NCBI GenBank assembly: GCA_965231105.1
Contig: OZ246417.1
Span: forward strand, 229,013 to 293,012
Reading direction: 5' to 3'
Source of the DNA: an uncultured Candidatus Saccharibacteria bacterium
GTDB taxonomy: Bacteria; Patescibacteriota; Saccharimonadia; Saccharimonadales; JACDBH01
DNA length: 64,000 nucleotides
How positions within the stretch are numbered: position 1 is the stretch's first letter; each line of letters begins with the position of its first letter. The notes under the pieces were generated by a model. It was not told the DNA's origin and did not search any database. It saw only the letters and a list, made by a program, of their open reading frames with translations. This document shows positions 3,014 through 54,227 of the stretch, in pieces. A program made the translations under genes and the position numbers.

Positions 3014-4514
3014 CGAATATTGACGTTATGGCCTGCAGTTCACTGCCACTTTCAGATACTATATCACTAGCCACGGGTTCAACGGGATCTGCTTGTTTTT
3101 CAGCAACCGGCTTACCCTTCGCCTTTTTATCGTGTAGAGCCTGAATCTGGTAGGTATTGCCTGTAAGTGCCTTAATAATACTCTGTAATTTTCCACTTGT
3201 TTGGGCGTCGGCAATCTTTTTGGCATGAAAGCCAAAAGAAAAACGCAACGTTAAAGTAGACTCGTTGCACTCCGGATGTGCCATACGAAGGACGCCATAC
3301 AGGGTGTTATTGTGCTTCTTTGTTTCCTGCAAAACATGAGGCCACCATTCTTCGAAGCCTGCATCTGAATGCGTAGGAGCGGTATTCTCTTCTGCTTTAG
3401 ACTCAGTTTCAGTAGGTTCCGCCTCTTCAACTTTCGCTTCAGCTGATTCTGACTTTTCTTTCTTTTCTATCTTGTTGGTGGGTTTTTCTGGTTTTGGCGT
3501 TGAGACAGGCGTGACGGGTGGTACGGAGGGTGCTGGCTGATGCGACGCAGAAGGTGTAGCAATGGCAGCGCCGAAGAGTGCAAGCTCTAGAGCTGCTAAG
3601 GGATTATGGGCGGCAGGGACAGAAAGGAGGTCGCTGAGGAGACTTTTAAGTAGCTCAGAGGACTGTTTATCTGTACTCGTAATGAATTGCTCGCGCACGA
3701 TCGCGCTTAGTTGTTTTGCAACCTGACTTGGAGTAATGCCCTGCTCTACGAGGCTGGCCAGGTTCTTTACTATTTCTGCAGGGACACCGGATAATGTGGC
3801 AGATAGAAGTCCTTCCAGGGCTTCATGAGGCGCAACGCCAATGAGGCGTTCCACGTCCTTGCGGGATACTGACTTCTTATGGTTGCCGACTTGGTCTAAT
3901 AAACTAATACTGTCTCTAAAACTTCCCGCACCATGCTCGGCCAATAGCTCGAGGGCATCATCGTCAATCTCTATGCCTTCCTTTTGCGCGATAGCACGAA
4001 GATGCTCAACCGCGCGTGGATTATCAATGGATTTAAAGGTAAAGCGCTGAGTTCTGCTGATAATAGTTTCAGGAAGTTTGTGTACCTCAGTGGTAGCTAG
4101 AATAAAGATGACGTGTGCTGGTGGTTCTTCGAGGGTTTTCAGAAGCGCATTAAATGCTTCTTTCGTGAGCATGTGCACTTCGTCGATAATATACACCTTG
4201 TACTTAGCTGAGGTAGGAGCAATGTGTACCTTGTCTCGAAGGTCTCTAATTTCATCAATACGTCGATTACTTGCGGCATCAATTTCAATAATATCGAGGT
4301 GCACCGATTCGTCGGTGTACGGAAGACTATTCACTTCATGCGCTAAGATACGAGCGATTGAAGTCTTACCCACTCCTCGAGGTCCAGTAAATAAATACGC
4401 ATGGCTAATCTTTCCAGACTTAATAGCGCGTTCAAGAGTTTTCGTGACATGCTCTTGCCCGACGATTTCCGATAACGATTTAGACCGATATTTTCGGTAT
4501 AATGCCTGACCCAA
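2988..4514 (-). CDS. dnaX: DNA polymerase III subunit gamma/tau
   Basis: It is 508 aa with an AAA+ Walker A (GPRGVGKTS) and the DnaX clamp-loader motifs. It starts at TTG with a GGAGG Shine-Dalgarno 7 nt upstream. Confidence 0.9.
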   Translation of the reverse strand: MGQALYRKYRSKSLSEIVGQEHVTKTLERAIKSGKISHAYLFTGPRGVGKTSIARILAHEVNSLPYTDESVHLDIIEIDAASNRRIDEIRDLRDKVHIAPTSAKYKVYIIDEVHMLTKEAFNALLKTLEEPPAHVIFILATTEVHKLPETIISRTQRFTFKSIDNPRAVEHLRAIAQKEGIEIDDDALELLAEHGAGSFRDSISLLDQVGNHKKSVSRKDVERLIGVAPHEALEGLLSATLSGVPAEIVKNLASLVEQGITPSQVAKQLSAIVREQFITSTDKQSSELLKSLLSDLLSVPAAHNPLAALELALFGAAIATPSASHQPAPSVPPVTPVSTPKPEKPTNKIEKKEKSESAEAKVEEAEPTETESKAEENTAPTHSDAGFEEWWPHVLQETKKHNNTLYGVLRMAHPECNESTLTLRFSFGFHAKKIADAQTSGKLQSIIKALTGNTYQIQALHDKKAKGKPVAEKQADPVEPVASDIVSESGSELQAITSIFGGGEVLES

Positions 4515-5789: not shown

Positions 5790-6173
5790 TTAGGCAAGCT
5801 CGACAGTAGCGCCGGCTTCTTCCAAAGTCTTCTTAGCGTTTTCAGCGTCCTCTTTCTTAGCTTTTTCAAGCACAGTCTTTGGAGCGCCATCAACGATAGC
5901 CTTTGCTTCACCAAGGCCAAGACCAGTAAGGTCCTTAACAGCCTTAATAACAGCAACCTTCTGAGCACCAGCGTCCTTAAGAACAACATCGTACTCAGCC
6001 TTGGCTTCTTCAGCAGGAGCGGCGTCGCCACCTGCAGCAGCAGGGCCAGCAACAGCTACAGCGGCAGCTGCAGGCTCAATGCCGTATTCATCCTTAAGGA
6101 TGGTCTTAAGTTCGTTTACTTCAAGGACAGTAAGGCTGGTAAGCTCTTCTGCCAATTTCTTTAAATCTGCCAT
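5790..6173 (-). CDS. rplL: 50S ribosomal protein L7/L12
   Basis: The 127-aa product has the Ala/Glu-rich hinge and the conserved C-terminal domain (...[16 protein letters not shown]...). Confidence 0.95.
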
Positions 6174-7439: not shown

Positions 7440-7458
7440 AACATTCTCCTTAAATCTT

Positions 7459-7707
7459 TTATACTGTCTCTCTGACTGACTGGATTTCGGTCTCAAAGTC
7501 GGCGCTCGAAAGTCCGCTTTGACTTGCTTCAGCTGCTTTTCGCCACTCATCGGTAAGGCCGTCGTATGCGGCCAATATCACAGCGGCAACCGCTACAGCT
7601 GTTTCGCTCATCGTTAACTTATTTTCGGGTCTCCAGTTTCGGTCTGCTTCTGGCATATGACCATGTGGCGTACTGACAGCTGGACAACCTTGGACCTCGC
7701 AACTCAT
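7459..7707 (-). CDS. Hypothetical small protein (82 aa), first gene of the trio
   Basis: An AAGGAA RBS sits 8-9 nt upstream of the ATG. The N-terminus reads CEVQGCPAVSTPHGH, with His/Cys that could bind metal. Confidence 0.5.
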   Translation of the reverse strand: MSCEVQGCPAVSTPHGHMPEADRNWRPENKLTMSETAVAVAAVILAAYDGLTDEWRKAAEASQSGLSSADFETEIQSVRETV

Positions 7708-47971: not shown

Positions 47972-48089
47972 GTCTATCCTTTACTTATTTGGCATCTCGT
48001 TAAAAATCTTGGTGCCGGGCGGTTTCTACCTCTGATAGACCTACCAAATCACCAAGAGAAAAGACGAAATGTTATTTAGATACCAAGAC

Positions 48090-48119
48090 AGATTACCACA
48101 GATCGCTTACATCTGTCAA
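48090..48119 (-). promoter_or_regulatory. Candidate promoter (TTGACA, 18 nt, TAATCT) for the rplC-led ribosomal operon
   Basis: The hexamers are read on the minus strand in the 175-nt spacer upstream of rplC. Confidence 0.3.
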
Positions 48120-48146
48120 TCTGTTGTATATTCTACAGTAACTGTA

Positions 48147-49523
48147 CTACTGAAGTGCTGTCCAACCTCCGCTTGGATGCCGCGTGCCTAATAAGTTCAT
48201 TGAGCAGTCAAAGCCATGTCCGTATGGACCATTTCTAAAACAGTTATTAATAAGAGTCTGTGCTGTATTGGTGTCCCAACCGTTCCACCAGTCGGCGTGA
48301 AATGTCCAGCCGGGTTGCGCATTCGCAAACATATCAGCAGAGAATTTTAGTCCCGCTGCCCCACCTGCAGGCACACGCCACCTAAAGTGTTCTGTAAGCT
48401 GGGGGTATGTTCTCGGATGAGATGAAGGGCAACCTCTATCAGGCCAGCCGCTAGGATATGACATATGGGATCGGTGATCGGGCGAATCCAGCACAGGATT
48501 ACCTTGTCCGTCTACAGCGCCACACTGAGGGAAAACAATAGTCGCCTGAATATAGTAGCCAGCCGGACAGTTGGCAGGAATCCTGTCTGTATCCCAGTCT
48601 ACGCCGCGCGTTCCCCATGTAGATTGAGCATGCCCCCAGGAAATACAGTCAAAGTACACAGGACGAAACTGCGGATCGAATGGTGCAGAAACTCTAATAG
48701 GACCAGTGGGAGCGACGTTGGGGTTGCCACCCGCTATCATGCGAAGGCCAGCCGGGAACCATTCTATATTTTCAATGCGCGCACCATAGTACCCTAATTT
48801 GTAATAGGCCTGCATTGCAGTGCCGCCTCTGCCGCCAGCACCAGGATTTTGAGGATCAGTATCAGTCATAACTTGAGCAAGATCAAAGGTTCTCGTCTGG
48901 GCGTTATAGCTGTTCGTATTTATAAGAGCCGGTGCCCAATACGCAGTTCTGTTTAGAATGCCGCCATTACAGGTTGAATTCCCTTGCGTTCGTGCATCAG
49001 TCAGATGTGCATTTGCAGCGGTGTTGCCAAAGAATTGGTGCCAGTGAGCCGCACCTGCCTGTCCGGGGTATACAATCGGATCATCCTTTGAGGTATGGCT
49101 GAGCGAACACTCTGTTCTAAAAGCAGCATTGTCATTGCAACCGGATTGCTCATTATTAAAGCAAACAGGATTAGGGGCATAGCTTACGGAAGTGGTACGA
49201 GCGGTACTGAACCCGCTCACGGCTGCAGGTATTGTTGCCTGATTTAAGCAGCTATTATGTGCGAGCTGAGGACCCACTGCACATTCTTGGCTGCTTCCTC
49301 CCATCCCAAAGGTAACGTAGGAGCCATTTGATGCATCGGCTGCGCTATGCGTCATTGCGTTCCCGCTTAAACTGCCGGATTCTGCTTCGAGTTTAACGTG
49401 TGATCGAACGGACTGAGCTATTGCCTGTACTGCAAGAAACAGACTCATTATGAGTACAAGAATAATAATTCGATTGCTTAGAAATTGCTTAAAGTGCGCA
49501 GAAAAACCCTTCATTCCAAACAC
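48147..49523 (-). CDS. Secreted or membrane-anchored protein, DUF1996-like
   Basis: The 458 aa have an N-terminal hydrophobic signal/anchor and are Gly/Asn/Trp/Cys-rich. The motif DPIVYPGQAGAAHWHQFFGN matches what I recall of the DUF1996 signature (PG..S.H.H.FFG). Confidence 0.55.
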   Translation of the reverse strand: MFGMKGFSAHFKQFLSNRIIILVLIMSLFLAVQAIAQSVRSHVKLEAESGSLSGNAMTHSAADASNGSYVTFGMGGSSQECAVGPQLAHNSCLNQATIPAAVSGFSTARTTSVSYAPNPVCFNNEQSGCNDNAAFRTECSLSHTSKDDPIVYPGQAGAAHWHQFFGNTAANAHLTDARTQGNSTCNGGILNRTAYWAPALINTNSYNAQTRTFDLAQVMTDTDPQNPGAGGRGGTAMQAYYKLGYYGARIENIEWFPAGLRMIAGGNPNVAPTGPIRVSAPFDPQFRPVYFDCISWGHAQSTWGTRGVDWDTDRIPANCPAGYYIQATIVFPQCGAVDGQGNPVLDSPDHRSHMSYPSGWPDRGCPSSHPRTYPQLTEHFRWRVPAGGAAGLKFSADMFANAQPGWTFHADWWNGWDTNTAQTLINNCFRNGPYGHGFDCSMNLLGTRHPSGGWTALQ

Positions 49524-49545
49524 CCTACCATAAGCCTTATAGGCA

Positions 49546-49806
49546 TTACAAAACTATTTCCAGTCCGAGCGGCAACCAGAACCCCACAAACATCGCTACG
49601 AGAAGAAGTGCGTATTCAATCTTTCGATCGATCTGAAAACGATCGTGAGATGCAAACACTATACCAAGGATAAGTCCAACCGGTATCGGTATCTGAGTGT
49701 TTCCTTTTGTGACACGAACCCACTGTGAGCCAATGATAAGATATAAAACTAGCTTCAGAACGAAAACACTATCCAGTTCTTGAGACTGAGATTTTGATTT
49801 TTTAGC
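49546..49806 (-). CDS. Hypothetical small membrane protein
   Basis: The ORF is trimmed to an internal Met (MAKKSKSQ...) to avoid overlap with the upstream ORF. It has two hydrophobic helices. Confidence 0.4.
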   Translation of the reverse strand, partial: AKKSKSQSQELDSVFVLKLVLYLIIGSQWVRVTKGNTQIPIPVGLILGIVFASHDRFQIDRKIEYALLLVAMFVGFWLPLGLEIVL

Positions 49807-49817
49807 CATTAGCGTTA

Positions 49818-50117
49818 TTAAAACATATAGGTAGACCGTCGGGCAATCACATCTTCGGCTGGACACACAGTACGGCTAGACAATTCAATCAGTCCACCCC
49901 TGCAATGGCCGCCAATACGGAGAGCATACTCTCGTTCTGCGTCACTCGCATTGAGACTTCCATTTTCTAAGTCTGTAAGGAGATCGAGAGCAACACTGTG
50001 TGCGATCGTACACTTACCACACTCCGGAGCAATGATGTCCATAACGAGATTGTACTTTTCGTATGCTTCCTCTTGTCCAGTCTCCAAAAGCGCCATTGAG
50101 CTATGGTAGCAAGACAT
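49818..50117 (-). CDS. Hypothetical Cys-containing protein
   Basis: A 99-aa ORF with CGKC and HCRGG motifs, at the head of the minus-strand operon that ends with the DUF1996-like gene. Confidence 0.4.
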   Translation of the reverse strand: MSCYHSSMALLETGQEEAYEKYNLVMDIIAPECGKCTIAHSVALDLLTDLENGSLNASDAEREYALRIGGHCRGGLIELSSRTVCPAEDVIARRSTYMF

Positions 50118-50180
50118 ATGCGTTGAAACAGTAAAATTACTTACATAAAATACTTTTTACGATTAGCGTAAAATGGTGTT

Positions 50181-50411
50181 ATGGCTAAAGGCAAAGAGTC
50201 GTCGCCCCGATCAAAAGAGAATGCCCCCGAAAAAGCGAGTCGTTTCTTTCGGAATGTAAACGCCTTAGGGGCACTCGCAATTGGTGGTGCAGCATTCGTT
50301 ATTCCTGGCCCAAATGTCATTTTAGCCTCATGGGCAGGTATTAATGCGGCTCAAGCGGGTGGCTGGGAATTCCTGCGCCGTAAAGCTGAGAAACATCGCA
50401 AGAAAGAATGA
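50181..50411 (+). CDS. Hypothetical small protein
   Basis: A 76-aa ORF with a basic N-terminus and one hydrophobic segment. Confidence 0.35.
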   Translation: MAKGKESSPRSKENAPEKASRFFRNVNALGALAIGGAAFVIPGPNVILASWAGINAAQAGGWEFLRRKAEKHRKKE

Positions 50412-50449
50412 TTCAAATTACTACTTTAATGAAAATGGCTTCCTCTAAT

Positions 50450-51031
50450 CTACTCACCGTTTGCATCTTTAATTTTTGATCTCAATAATCTTCTTACAAC
50501 TTCAGCCTTGGTTGTATTGGCATTAAAAGCTGCCCAGCGTAAATAATTGTGGATTTCTTTGTCTATTACGAAGTTAAACCGAAGATCTTGAAGATCTAGT
50601 TCATTCTGTTGTAAAAATGTTGTAATAATTGAAGACAGGTTGGAAGATGTGTATTTCTTATAAGTGAGTAAATCAGACACAATTCCTGAACCAAAGCTAT
50701 CTCGCAGGGAGTCATTTCTAGTAAGTACTAGGATTGGTTTTTTTAGTTGTAGAGCCAGGGCTGTTTGAAAACCAATTGAAAAACTTTTAGCAGAGGCTTC
50801 AAATATGCATACGTCAGCCTTCTTTATGCTTTCCATGATTAATTTATGAATCGCAGTCCAGTTTCTAGGATCCACATTTGTTTTCTTTATTTTCTTAGTA
50901 GCGGCATAAGCTTCTTCAATCCATTCAAGGGCCAGTCCACATTTGTTTTCTTTAACACAGGCCGTGATAGCCCGAAAGATTTCTATATCTTTTTCTATAT
51001 TACTTTCTGAGGCAGAGAACTGAACAATCAT
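50450..51031 (-). CDS. Nucleoside 2-deoxyribosyltransferase-like / SLOG-fold domain protein with a C-terminal ribbon-helix-helix (RHH) DNA-binding tail
   Basis: The N-terminal segment ...ADVCIFEASAKSFSIGFQTALALQLKKPILVL resembles the NDT/SLOG Rossmann-like core. The C-terminal segment FNFVIDKEIHNYLRWAAFNANTTKAEVVRRLLRSKI fits a beta-alpha-alpha RHH pattern. The coding sequence is AT-rich. Confidence 0.55.
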   Translation of the reverse strand: MIVQFSASESNIEKDIEIFRAITACVKENKCGLALEWIEEAYAATKKIKKTNVDPRNWTAIHKLIMESIKKADVCIFEASAKSFSIGFQTALALQLKKPILVLTRNDSLRDSFGSGIVSDLLTYKKYTSSNLSSIITTFLQQNELDLQDLRFNFVIDKEIHNYLRWAAFNANTTKAEVVRRLLRSKIKDANGE

Positions 51032-51085
51032 AAATAATTTTCCGCTTGCTTTATTTACTCATACTCTATACATATATGTGTAACC

Positions 51086-52099
51086 ATGCAACACATATGT
51101 ACATCGTGTCTGTACTGTTTTAAAAATAAAGCTTGTCGAGAGTGTTGCCTTCGAGAAGCTTATGATATCTTTGAGACAACCGGTGAGAGTTCAACAAAAA
51201 ATCAACTGAACCTATACGGCTTGCAAGAACTAGCAACCTATCCGTTTGAAGTGGAACAAATATCAGAATTTAACATACGCGTATCTCACCCTTATTTTAA
51301 CTGTAGTGAGCTTAATCTTATGCCACTCCTCCAAGTCCTAACAGCTGCTCATAAGAAAGAAATAGATATGGATAAGGATGTATCTAGGAAAATGCTAGAC
51401 CTAACTATAGAGTTGCTGTGCCGAGAAGGGGTTACGATTAAAGATCTTGGAACACGTCTTTCGGAACCCCCTGCTCACACAACCCTGGACATATATATTT
51501 ATGATGCTCGCTTTAGCCATCTCTTAACCTATGAGGCACTGTTCAGGCATTTTTCTCAAGGCGAACTTTTTATAGCGGACATTCATGACCTGACCCACCA
51601 CGGTCTCCAGATGATTGTATTTAGTGATTTTGTACCTAAGCTGGGCCAATTTGGATTGCAGGCTATTCAAAATAAGAGTGAATATCAGCTCGAATTAGCT
51701 ATATTTTTACTATACGCCTGCTTAGAATACTCAATTATCAAAGGCTCAAGGAACGCTTACAGCGGGGGGTGCTTAAATTGGCAGCATCCTCGAAAAAGTC
51801 CTGCAGAGAATGCTCAGTATCAGCCAATGTGCGCAAAATGCATTGTTTCCTGGAACAGCGTAAGAGGTCTTACGTCACTGTATCGAAGAGAAAAACAGTC
51901 AGCTGATAAGCTGGGTATCGAGGTTGAGTGGATGAAGAAATTAGGCTACGACACTTATCCTGAAAATCCTATTACTGGGGATATAACTTTTAGAAAAGAC
52001 ATATTCGTGAGACCGCCACTTTTTAGTGGTCCACATACAATTGAAGCGTTATTAGAAAATGCCACGATACTTATGAAAGAAGAAAGGAGCTACATTTAA
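51086..52099 (+). CDS. Hypothetical protein with an N-terminal Cys cluster (CxxC...CxxCC)
   Basis: The 337-aa ORF is divergent from the NDT-like gene and AT-rich. It contains a His-rich IHDLTHHG segment. Confidence 0.5.
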   Translation: MQHICTSCLYCFKNKACRECCLREAYDIFETTGESSTKNQLNLYGLQELATYPFEVEQISEFNIRVSHPYFNCSELNLMPLLQVLTAAHKKEIDMDKDVSRKMLDLTIELLCREGVTIKDLGTRLSEPPAHTTLDIYIYDARFSHLLTYEALFRHFSQGELFIADIHDLTHHGLQMIVFSDFVPKLGQFGLQAIQNKSEYQLELAIFLLYACLEYSIIKGSRNAYSGGCLNWQHPRKSPAENAQYQPMCAKCIVSWNSVRGLTSLYRREKQSADKLGIEVEWMKKLGYDTYPENPITGDITFRKDIFVRPPLFSGPHTIEALLENATILMKEERSYI

Positions 52100-52101
52100 C
52101 C

Positions 52102-52776
52102 ATGGCGGAAGGCAAGGAAGTTTATCGACAGCCGCATGCAATAACTTCCCAAGGGAAGCTTGCAATAATTGCGGGGCCCCATGGCTCGGGAAAAGATACG
52201 CTTGCTAACTTACTTCCCTTCACGCTCCCTAATTATAGGAAGGTAGTGAGATATACAACGCGCCCCCAAGGTTTAGCAGAAGTTCAGGGCATTGACTACC
52301 ATTTCGTAGGCACAAGCACTTTTACAGAAATGGCTCAGAGTGGCGAATTTATCGAATTTAACAGCTATATGGACGGAGCAACCGGAACTAGAAGACAAGA
52401 TATTCGCACAGCCAGCATGCAGGGCAGTGTTGGAGGCCTTACCATAAACTTTGAAGACGGGCTTAAGTTAAAAGAGAAACTAGAAGCAGAGGGTATTCAG
52501 TCTGTGTGTTTTTTTATCGGTCCTTGTACTGAAGAAGAGATGATAGTGAATCCCTCGGCCTACCTGAAGCTACTTAGCGAGAGGATGGAAAGGAGGGGCA
52601 GATCTTCCGATAATTTAAGTGAGAGACTCAAACGTGCACTCGAATATAGAAATCTTTATCTAAAAAATGCAGCGAGCATAGAATATATCCCAAACATTAA
52701 TCACCTGCAGCATGCAGCCGCTCAGGGTATAGCTAGTGTTTTGTCTGTTCCTGAATCAACCGATCATATTTCTTAA
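52102..52776 (+). CDS. Guanylate kinase-like NMP kinase family protein with an atypical Walker A (GPHGSGKDT)
   Basis: The 224 aa have a P-loop, RYTTRPQG and IDYHFV motifs paralleling Gmk SxTTR...GxDYxFV. It starts 3 nt after the previous stop. Confidence 0.65.
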   Translation: MAEGKEVYRQPHAITSQGKLAIIAGPHGSGKDTLANLLPFTLPNYRKVVRYTTRPQGLAEVQGIDYHFVGTSTFTEMAQSGEFIEFNSYMDGATGTRRQDIRTASMQGSVGGLTINFEDGLKLKEKLEAEGIQSVCFFIGPCTEEEMIVNPSAYLKLLSERMERRGRSSDNLSERLKRALEYRNLYLKNAASIEYIPNINHLQHAAAQGIASVLSVPESTDHIS

Positions 52777-53308
52777 CTTCTAACGACTCTCTACCTATTC
52801 CTAGTTCTTCTGCTTTGCTAAATATCAAAGCCTCCACCTCATCTGTAGGATCGTCGCTGGTCAGCAACTCGATCTCTAGGTACTCACCCAATCTCTCCAC
52901 TAAATCAAGGGCTATAGTTAAGCCATCTTCTTGAATTTCAATACGCTTTTTATTTATCTCTACAACTTTTTTAAAACCAATTGATTCGATAATATTTTTC
53001 GCAACCATAACAGAATCTACTCGTGTTTCATATTCGTTGCTATCACCACTTTGATTGATAGTCTTTTTTAGGGTAAGGATAGTTACTTGACCATCATTAC
53101 GAATTCTAGCTACTGGATCGCCGGGCTTAAAATTACGAAAGCTGTCCATCTTATACAGAAAAACTTGATCCTTCTGTATCTTCTCTTTTGAGCGTGGACT
53201 CCTAAATCGTATATATTTACGAATTTTATCGGCTTGCTCTTTAGAAAGTCGAAATTTACGTTCTATTTCTTTCATATATGGTTTATAGAATAGCGTACCC
53301 TTAGACAA
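52733..53308 (-). CDS. CYTH-domain protein (triphosphate tunnel metalloenzyme / CyaB-like)
   Basis: The 191 aa open with EIERKFRL, the CYTH signature, and show alternating charged beta-strands. It lies directly downstream of rpsJ on the same strand and is AT-rich. Confidence 0.65.
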   Translation of the reverse strand: MSKGTLFYKPYMKEIERKFRLSKEQADKIRKYIRFRSPRSKEKIQKDQVFLYKMDSFRNFKPGDPVARIRNDGQVTILTLKKTINQSGDSNEYETRVDSVMVAKNIIESIGFKKVVEINKKRIEIQEDGLTIALDLVERLGEYLEIELLTSDDPTDEVEALIFSKAEELGIGRESLEVKKYDRLIQEQTKH

Positions 53309-53366
53309 AAACTAAGTACTAAAAATGACCGCTGTGAATAAAAGAGCTGGGCTACTTTTGCTAGTG

Positions 53367-53705
53367 CTACATCTTAATCTCAGCGTCACAACCAGCAGGA
53401 AGACTCAGATTCATAAGTGAATCAATTGTCTTGGGGGTTGGATCAAAGACGTCAATAAGACGCTTATGAATGCGCATTTCGAACTGTTCACGACCCTTTT
53501 TATAGACATGCGGGCTCTTTACAACCGTAAAGGTGTTCTTACGAGTTGGTAGAGGAATTGGACCAGCAATAGTAGCCCCGGTACGAAGAGCGGTGTCTAC
53601 GATCTGCTTGGCAGACTGGTCAATTACTTTATGATCGTATGCCTTAAGGCGGATACGAATACGCTGCTTACCGGCAGGCGCGTCGGTTTTCTTGGCTTCA
53701 GCCAT
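53367..53705 (-). CDS. rpsJ: 30S ribosomal protein S10
   Basis: A 112-aa S10 family match. Confidence 0.95.
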
Positions 53706-53817
53706 TTATTTCTCCTTATGTCGTAACCTACCACGGAGTGATGAGTGACCGGATAGTTCTCGACAACGATTAATTTAACCTAAGTGATTCTACAATAAAA
53801 CTACTGCAATTGAAAGC

Positions 53818-54165
53818 CTAAAGATATGTCCCGTGATTCCGGCTTTCCTGCGGCTGAACAACCTTATCCAGAGGTATACGGTATTGACCAGTCTGCCACA
53901 ATCCTGTTCCCTGACCCCGTGCTCCATACACAATTTCACGGAGAGGACAGTCGATTTGCCCGCTCTGTTGGTTCTGAGACACCCCTGGACACTCGATTTT
54001 TGTACGCATAGCTTGTAACGCTTTTCTTCCTAGTGCAATCCCCCCTAATGCGACATTCCCGTTTGGTTCAGGATATTCATTGGCGAGTTCTTCGGCTACA
54101 TCGAAAACGGCATCCATCGGACACTTACTTATATCACATGTACTCATACTACTATTGCAACACAA
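53818..54165 (-). CDS. Hypothetical Cys-rich protein between tuf and rpsJ
   Basis: A 115-aa ORF with 7 Cys. The start is uncertain. Confidence 0.4.
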   Translation of the reverse strand: MCCNSSMSTCDISKCPMDAVFDVAEELANEYPEPNGNVALGGIALGRKALQAMRTKIECPGVSQNQQSGQIDCPLREIVYGARGQGTGLWQTGQYRIPLDKVVQPQESRNHGTYL

Positions 54166-54174
54166 ATACCGTTA

Positions 54175-54210
54175 ATTTAAAAGAGCCCCACTTCACCTGG
54201 GGCTCTTCAG
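54175..54210 (-). terminator. Intrinsic terminator after tuf
   Basis: A 9-bp stem AGAGCCCCA/TGGGGCTCT with a 7-nt loop is followed by a U-rich run on the minus strand. A second 7-bp hairpin overlaps the tuf stop. Confidence 0.5.
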
Positions 54211-54227
54211 TGTAACTTTCCGTGAAG

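Follow-up and report, generated by a model that had tools for sequence, protein, structure and literature searches.

A protein of 193 amino acids from an uncultured Saccharibacteria bacterium joins an N-terminal domain of the DNPH1 type to a C-terminal ribbon-helix-helix (RHH) unit, and the explanation that we favor, with moderate confidence, is an RHH transcription factor, presumably a repressor, that senses nucleotides or nucleosides through a pseudoenzyme derived from DNPH1. Its gene occupies positions 50450–51031, on the reverse strand and with an ATG start, of a 64,000-nucleotide stretch of contig OZ246417.1 (hereafter the window, or W), where it is divergent from an operon encoding a Cys-rich protein and a guanylate kinase-like protein; contigs or loci with genes of the same family, fetched for comparison, are numbered L001, L002 and so on. 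Four results computed here carry this explanation: the identities of the two domains, the loss of the catalytic residues, the conservation of a four-gene cassette that includes the fusion gene, and the conservation of a palindrome between the divergent genes. The architecture is undescribed in Pfam, NCBIfam, PADLOC, PHROGs, the PDB and the papers searched, and in our literature search no paper connected RHH regulators, or Saccharibacteria, with a domain of the DNPH1 or deoxyribosyltransferase kind, in agreement with a preliminary description of this DNA in which the fusion was no known class of regulator.

Domains and active site of the fusion protein

The open reading frame (ORF), taken from the ORF list and also represented by homologues and a structural model, is a real gene under selection and not a chance ORF, because it has full-length homologues and a large family. 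Against 5.8 billion proteins, a word-indexed search gave 18 homologues of full length (34–72% identity). An exhaustive phmmer scan, which took in 1.84 billion cluster representatives, yielded 812 clusters (50% identity) at E ≤ 1e-3, of which 201 reached E ≤ 1e-10; almost every one is about 190 amino acids long and aligns end to end. Scans of Pfam, NCBIfam, PADLOC and PHROGs with the single sequence gave nothing significant, and profiles of the family, which itself has no above-threshold match in Pfam or NCBIfam, were therefore needed. We used an alignment of 91 family sequences (A2) for the profile and the column statistics, and a second of 52 members (A3) for scans of the tails.

Profile and fold support the placement of the N-terminal domain (amino acids 1–142; 50606–51031, reverse strand), which is Rossmann-like and predicted to be catalytically dead, in the nucleoside 2-deoxyribosyltransferase (NDT) superfamily, DNPH1/Rcl type. 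The window sequence alone gave a weak match to Rcl/DNPH1 in the PDB (E = 0.015, residues 61–109); the A2 profile matched rat and human DNPH1/Rcl over positions 3–143, the whole enzyme, with E-values from 3.7e-17 to 1e-13, and also classical NDT at 2.4e-5, while PF05014 was matched individually by 48 of the 91 members. In an AlphaFold2 (AF2) model built with the family alignment (mean predicted local distance difference test score, pLDDT, 93.2; predicted template modelling score, pTM, 0.79), strands and helices alternate in Rossmann-like fashion over residues 2–142, and the top Foldseek matches of this model in the PDB were all DNPH1/Rcl chains (E about 1e-6, target TM 0.7–0.84). The fold is shared, with profile similarity across the whole enzyme domain, by DNPH1/Rcl and the bacterial enzymes MilB and BlsM (PF05014). 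In BFVD, structural matches were to viral NDT-like proteins and covered the N-terminal domain only. The preliminary description had called this domain NDT/SLOG-like, quoting the peptide ADVCIFEASAKSFSIGFQTALALQLKKPIL, which is residues 72–101 of the fusion protein; the first half of that label stood, and the second was rejected because the LOG and SLOG families were absent from the Pfam, PDB-profile and Foldseek results, all of which were DNPH1 or NDT apart from a weak TIR match (E = 0.11).

The active site was mapped through alignments of the window sequence and the A2 profile to DNPH1, with the roles of the human residues as described (PMC10603095) and with column counts over the 91 family sequences. 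Features that serve ligand binding are kept in the window protein. The Ser that binds the 5′-phosphate (S98 in human DNPH1) is retained as S83 (55 Ser and 12 Thr in the family), and the base-stacking I76 as I61, in a column that is hydrophobic in the family. Of the two base-recognition residues, R30 corresponds to S10 (24 Ser, 20 Arg and 9 Asn) and H56 to the acidic E36 (67 Asp, 13 Asn and 4 Glu); MilB also has an acidic residue at the latter position, a Glu that serves an amino-bearing base (PMC10603095). At the second phosphate-binding Ser, which in DNPH1 comes from the partner subunit (S128′), the window protein has D111.

All three catalytic residues, on the other hand, are lost. Y24, which confers 2′-deoxy specificity, is replaced by Q4 (49 His, 18 Tyr, 9 Gln and 9 Phe in the family), and the acid/base D80 by I65, at a position occupied by Ser, Asn, Val, Thr or Ile and where Asp is conserved nowhere in the family. 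The nucleophile (E104 in the human enzyme, E93 in the rat) is replaced by Q89, encoded at 50765–50767 on the reverse strand and aligned with the Glu of the GYELG motif; this column holds Gln in 62 sequences (68%), Glu in 10 (11%) and other residues, such as Leu, Ile, Phe, Tyr or Arg, in 19. The same substitution has been engineered in human DNPH1, where the E104Q protein binds intact 5-hydroxymethyl-2′-deoxyuridine monophosphate and leaves it uncleaved (PMC10603095), and PDB chain 8qhq has the sequence GVGYQLG, which is the consensus of the fusion family. Because the defining catalytic residues are absent, the window protein is, judged by its sequence, not an enzyme of the DNPH1 type. It further differs from DNPH1, which stands alone at about 150 amino acids, in carrying the additional C-terminal RHH, and its family is so far confined to Saccharibacteria.

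The tail (amino acids 149–190; 50462–50587, reverse strand) consists of a strand, DLRFNFVID, a helix at residues 158–171, the turn NTT and a second helix at residues 175–190. Both helices are present in the AF2 model, in which residues 143–157 are extended and unpaired, as they would be in a monomer, and the pLDDT of the tail ranges from 74 to 98. The window tail by itself had no match in Pfam at E ≤ 1. When the tails of the 52 members were searched against Pfam one by one, 16 matched RHH_1 (best 5e-7), 9 matched RHH_3 and 8 matched RepB-RCR_reg, with further matches to SeqA_N, ParG, 56B_RHH and ParD, all of them RHH folds. Alignment of the tail profile with hhalign was gapless over 37 columns for CopG (P = 1.4e-4) and required one gap for Arc (P = 2.9e-3), where RFNFVI stood opposite QFNLRW, and this register places R151, N153 and V155 at ribbon positions. 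The base-contacting ribbon residues are R4, T6 and T8 in CopG and Q9, N11 and R13 in Arc. Conservation across the whole family peaks at R151, F152 and N153, which are nearly invariant, and the family also has the G-x-T/S turn that is typical of RHH proteins that bind DNA. Fold and profile together support membership of the RHH superfamily, and two tails are predicted to pair into a dimer capable of sequence-specific DNA binding, with conserved palindromes in the promoters as the indirect evidence.

These results bear out the preliminary description on the substituted catalytic Glu and on the C-terminal RHH: the predicted structure has a DNPH1-type domain followed by a strand-helix-helix tail, and where an active enzyme would have a complete catalytic triad, other residues stand at the positions of Tyr, Asp and Glu. 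The observation that it reported is confirmed, and its interpretation of the protein as a regulator is supported as a candidate.

The divergent spacer and a candidate operator

The fusion gene and the Cys-rich gene are separated by 54 bp (51032–51085), which presumably hold both promoters; a simple sigma-70 scan of this spacer found no canonical match. The candidate operator is the near-palindrome TATACATATATGTGTAA at 51067–51083, that is, from −19 to −3 relative to the ATG of the Cys-rich gene, with a perfect 10-bp core, ACATATATGT, at 51070–51079 (designed mutant version, ACGTATACGT). An idealised 16-mer of the palindrome had no other match in the 64 kb, even with three mismatches allowed. 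At the same position in other copies of the cassette, the block TTACACATAT(A/T)TGTATA is identical at 19 of 19 positions in L027 and at 18 of 19 in L026, and variant blocks with TTACACATA or TGTGTATA occur in L001, L028 and L008. An inverted repeat, ATATGTGT-N9-ACACATAT, at 51074–51098 spans the start codon of the Cys-rich gene; ACACATAT occurs three times in the window, and two of these occurrences are here, in inverted orientation.

A second subfamily, divergent from a NUDIX-like gene, has its own conserved block, TTGTGTATA-N9-TATACACAA, in the intergenic regions of four loci (L002:~7455–7520, L011:~4105–4170, L017:~1545–1610 and L023:~5885–5950). This block continues with a third TTGTGT/ACACAA element, which has the opposite orientation in two of these loci, and then with TTTCTATATTGA; its conservation far exceeds that of the coding DNA on its flanks. 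The core TGTGTA is common to this block and to the palindrome region of the window. GGAAA(A) lies 8–15 nt upstream of the start in 10 of 31 family genes against 7 of 109 other intergenic regions (p = 5e-4, uncorrected) and has the form gcGGAAAattatttATG in the window; it is probably the ribosome-binding site of the family genes. An earlier k-mer enrichment, calculated against a whole-locus background, was discarded, as it reflected the AT-rich composition of intergenic DNA.

Taken together, the protein and the spacer are best explained by a one-component, ligand-responsive transcription factor made from a pseudoenzyme. Its sensor, with the DNPH1 fold, the phosphate-binding S83, the stacking I61 and the acidic E36 at the base-recognition position, would bind a ligand resembling a nucleoside 5′-monophosphate without hydrolysing it, as DNPH1 E104Q does, because the binding features are kept and Tyr, Asp and Glu are lost (Q4, I65 and Q89). 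The RHH units of two subunits would pair into a two-stranded beta-ribbon that directs R151, N153 and V155 toward the major groove, and the ribbon would bind the near-palindrome over the start of the operon of the Cys-rich and guanylate kinase-like genes, as well as the region of its own promoter. Occupancy of the sensor dimer by the ligand may then alter the affinity for the operator, a step that would couple expression of the cassette to the nucleotide pool.

Several points weigh against this mechanism. The N-terminal domain and the tail of the window protein each fall below the Pfam threshold when taken alone, so that their assignments depend on the family profiles, and binding of DNA and of the ligand are predictions from sequence and model. 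The putative regulated partner is an orphan Cys-rich protein without an assignable function. Codons 2–5 of that protein (QHIC), which are conserved, contain the right arm of the inverted repeat, and coding constraint may contribute to its conservation. The conserved palindrome, for its part, could simply belong to the promoter of the Cys-rich gene, as its −10 region or as a leaderless start; since it may be such a promoter element, the operator is put forward as a candidate. The enrichment of TGTGTA upstream of family genes (12 of 31 against 14 of 92, p = 0.0075) is post hoc, and in a comparison of 5- to 7-mers between 31 family upstream regions and 109 other intergenic regions no enrichment survived correction. 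Tandem arrays of paralogues that share their DNA-contact residues, described below, would also be unusual for simple local repressors.

The four-gene cassette and alternative functions

The cassette comprises the fusion gene and three others. The Cys-rich protein (337 amino acids; 51086–52099, forward strand) is the divergent partner and putative regulated target, and a diverged guanylate kinase-like P-loop kinase follows it in the same operon after 2 bp (52102–52776, forward strand), with a Pfam Guanylate_kin match at 7.8e-17, a TIGR03263 score of 77.6 that is below the cutoff of 160, and matches to guanylate kinases of the PDB at about 1e-11. A CYTH/CyaB-like triphosphate-tunnel enzyme (52733–53308, reverse strand; Pfam CYTH 4.4e-16; TIGR00318 score 72.6, above the cutoff of 57.95) is convergent with the kinase gene, and CYTH genes also adjoin family genes in L005 and L008. 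The same arrangement accompanied every close orthologue fetched: the cassette is complete in L001, L026, L027 and L028 and partial in L008, and the Cys-rich gene adjoins the fusion gene in all five and in the window, so that the divergent layout noted in the preliminary description is a conserved one. The four genes travel as a unit, because the flanks differ among the contigs and only the window and L001 have the cassette beside rpsJ. The fusion gene is the best conserved of the four (58–72% identity, against 32–47% for the other three), and the GC content of the cassette is 0.35–0.42, compared with 0.46–0.52 for the flanking ribosomal genes.

The Cys-rich protein has only three database homologues. 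Across five members there was no Pfam match, no PDB profile match was obtained, and its AF2 model is unusable (pLDDT 50). Its N-terminus carries a C-x2-C-x2-C-x5-C-x2-C(C) cluster, and its invariant motifs are SHPY.NC, YDAR.SHLL, LFIADIHDLTHHG.Q, GCLNWQ.PRKSPAE and C..C..WN..RG; one possibility is a new enzyme that depends on metal and handles nucleotides.

The surroundings of the cassette are variable. The order tuf-rpsJ-rplC, normally contiguous, is broken twice in the window (47972–53366 and 53706–54227). The gap between rpsJ and rplC holds about 5.4 kb of accessory genes, namely a DUF1996 secreted protein (48147–49523), small membrane or Cys-containing ORFs and the cassette, and the gap between tuf and rpsJ holds an ORF of 115 amino acids that contains Cys (53818–54165). 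L001 has other accessory genes at the same place, among them one with a CAP domain, and this stretch is therefore a variable hot spot. In L001 the cassette is bracketed by copies of about 125 bp, 100% identical, of the 3′ end of rpsJ (L001:1–125 and L001:2987–3113), which correspond to the last 40 codons of the gene including the stop, the left copy being at the contig end; their appearance is that of an att-type duplication created when DNA inserted into the rpsJ 3′ end, or else of a repeat through which excision could occur. The corresponding part of the window is 53367–53490, and a second rpsJ fragment was sought in the window and not found. In L008 (4866–6495), which belongs to a metagenome-assembled genome, the fusion and Cys-rich genes are both disrupted near their 5′ ends by frame changes at A-rich runs, so that they are either pseudogenes or affected by homopolymer errors of long reads.

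In one alternative the protein is still a ligand-sensing RHH protein, and its biology is that of immunity or conflict rather than salvage homeostasis. It would act as both sensor and regulator for a mobile cassette of nucleotide signalling or of conflict (defence-like), in which its DNPH1-like domain would sense a nucleotide signal made or destroyed by the CYTH enzyme and its RHH would set the expression of the Cys-rich protein and the kinase as effectors. Movement of the four genes together to different genomic sites, the 125-bp direct repeats flanking the L001 copy and the deviating GC content would all be consistent with such a role, as would the narrow, orphan distribution of the Cys-rich partner, which is typical of accessory genes, and the occurrence of CYTH beside family genes in a second subfamily as well (L005). 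We nevertheless regard this alternative as unlikely: a comparison of the four cassette proteins with PADLOC-DB v2 gave only a marginal match of the kinase to mad8 (E = 0.011), the cassette has no integrase or recombinase, IMG/VR, INPHARED and PLSDB contain no member of the family, and most members occupy a site between uvrA and dedA/rplY, beside nucleotide enzymes of housekeeping type.

A smaller chance still is given to an active or moonlighting 'trigger enzyme', that is, a (deoxy)nucleoside monophosphate N-glycosidase or a deoxyribosyltransferase whose RHH would serve oligomerisation or autoregulation. PutA, which combines an RHH with an enzyme, is the model for such a protein. Homologues of the fusion protein are unnamed or called 'hypothetical protein' in their source annotations, except for a few that JGI calls 'nucleoside 2-deoxyribosyltransferase', and some of the minority that keeps the nucleophilic Glu also has Tyr at position 4, giving a DNPH1-like signature (Y...GVGYEVA, or GVGYE). 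One natural paralogue with Glu is the product of L017:1664–2242. Since this minority retains the Glu, the ancestral fusion may have been an enzyme. In the window protein, however, Q4, I65 and Q89 are all non-catalytic, the acid/base Asp is unconserved family-wide, and the change of E104 to Gln abolishes cleavage by human DNPH1 (PMC10603095).

It is similarly improbable that the RHH-like tail serves contacts between proteins, as in hetero-oligomers of paralogues, or binds RNA, which would make the family one of nucleotide-binding scaffolds or buffers. A shared protein interface would fit the near-invariance of the DLRFNF strand across paralogues that are only 30–40% identical, and no universal operator motif was found. 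Two paralogues (L002:7567–8004 and L011:4229–4672) consist of the NDT-type domain without an RHH tail and lie directly upstream of full-length genes, and their stops overlap the next full-length start by 1–4 nt, a translational coupling that suggests hetero-oligomers. Against this, alignment with CopG and Arc sets Arg, Asn and Val at the base-contacting positions, the turn is that of DNA-binding RHH proteins, and the promoters of two subfamilies contain conserved palindromes. Finally, HicB-type antitoxins also have an N-terminal domain followed by a C-terminal RHH, and one family tail weakly matches HicB_lk_antitox, but a type II toxin-antitoxin system was rejected because no toxin gene, HicA or other, adjoins the fusion gene and none is among the Pfam and PADLOC matches. 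The N-terminal domain is unrelated to that of HicB.

Paralogue arrays and proposed nucleotide sensing in Saccharibacteria

All 21 genome matches of the pattern DLRFNF[VF]ID belong to Saccharibacteria/Saccharimonadales. A phage, plasmid or defence origin of the family was rejected, as IMG/VR, the INPHARED phages and the PLSDB plasmids held no match and those in BFVD were limited to the N-terminal domain. Most members have the stable chromosomal site named above. Family genes frequently form tandem arrays: five paralogues in L021 (6001–9063), four in L012 (348–3652) and L022 (4122–6567), three in L011 (4193–5229) and L025 (420–2197), and two elsewhere. Stop and start codons of successive array genes often overlap. 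Positional counterparts in different genomes are 46–79% identical, compared with about 40% between neighbours in an array, and the paralogues are therefore ancient and their order has been kept; the sequences indicate at least four old orthologous groups retained in order.

Nucleotide metabolism genes dominate the neighbourhoods of 26 loci, with three NUDIX families, PRTase_3, HAD, GTP cyclohydrolase I (FolE), Ham1/ITPase, deoxynucleoside monophosphate kinase, PfkB and CYTH as recurrent members. A second uncharacterised family (c2), of about 160–200 amino acids and without a Pfam match or an RHH, lies beside arrays in 11 loci, including L002 (8588–9058), L005, L006, L007, L009, L010, L015, L021 and L022; its domain is remotely NDT-like (hhalign against A2: probability 92.7%, E = 4e-7).

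Pocket positions vary among the paralogues: the former nucleophile at position 89 may be Gln, Glu, Leu, Phe, Tyr or Ile. The R-x-N residues that would contact DNA are almost constant and the ribbon mostly so, with divergent ribbons in a few paralogues. To our knowledge, Saccharibacteria have no de novo nucleotide synthesis. The occurrence of tandem arrays in a large family suggests a wider role in nucleotide sensing than that of a single local regulator, and we tentatively propose, as a possibility short of an even chance, that Saccharibacteria evolved lineage-specific pseudoenzyme regulators in which the three to five paralogues of an array each sense a different nucleotide or nucleoside, together forming a combinatorial network that senses the pool and controls salvage genes. 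Within this network, the window gene would be dedicated to the mobile cassette of CYTH, kinase and Cys-rich genes.

Known regulators offer precedents for both halves of the proposed ligand-sensing RHH factor. NikR is the textbook combination of an RHH with a ligand-binding domain, in which the RHH is N-terminal and the sensor is ACT-like and binds metal. The beta-alpha-alpha unit is that of NikR, MetJ, CopG and Arc, and in the fusion tail it presents Arg and Asn on the ribbon. The logic by which a small-molecule-binding domain controls an RHH reader of DNA would be shared with NikR, whereas in the fusion protein the RHH is C-terminal, the sensor is a DNPH1-like pseudoenzyme and DNA binding is predicted. 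Reuse of an enzyme fold as the effector module has precedents in NrtR, where a Nudix-like domain with a winged helix-turn-helix (wHTH) senses ADP-ribose, and in PurR of B. subtilis, where a phosphoribosyltransferase (PRTase)-like domain with a wHTH senses phosphoribosyl pyrophosphate. Both regulate nucleotide-related genes through a degenerate enzyme fold, and a similarly salvage-rich genomic neighbourhood surrounds the fusion family. Here, however, the enzyme fold is NDT/DNPH1 instead of Nudix or PRTase and the DNA reader an RHH instead of a wHTH, so that the likeness is one of analogy; nowhere outside the RHH is the fusion protein homologous to NikR, NrtR or PurR.

If the proposed function is correct, NDT/DNPH1 would join the short list of enzyme scaffolds that have been reused as effector domains of transcription factors, and the window protein would be a natural counterpart of the Glu-to-Gln 'substrate trap' engineered in human DNPH1. 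The Cys-rich protein, with its DIHDLTHHG motif, and the diverged guanylate kinase would in turn become candidates for a new nucleotide-handling activity. Almost nothing is known of transcription regulation in Saccharibacteria and other bacteria of the Candidate Phyla Radiation, which live as obligate epibionts and rely on their hosts for nucleotides, and an abundant, lineage-specific family of regulators would provide an experimental handle on how scavenged nucleotides are sensed and managed by these organisms.

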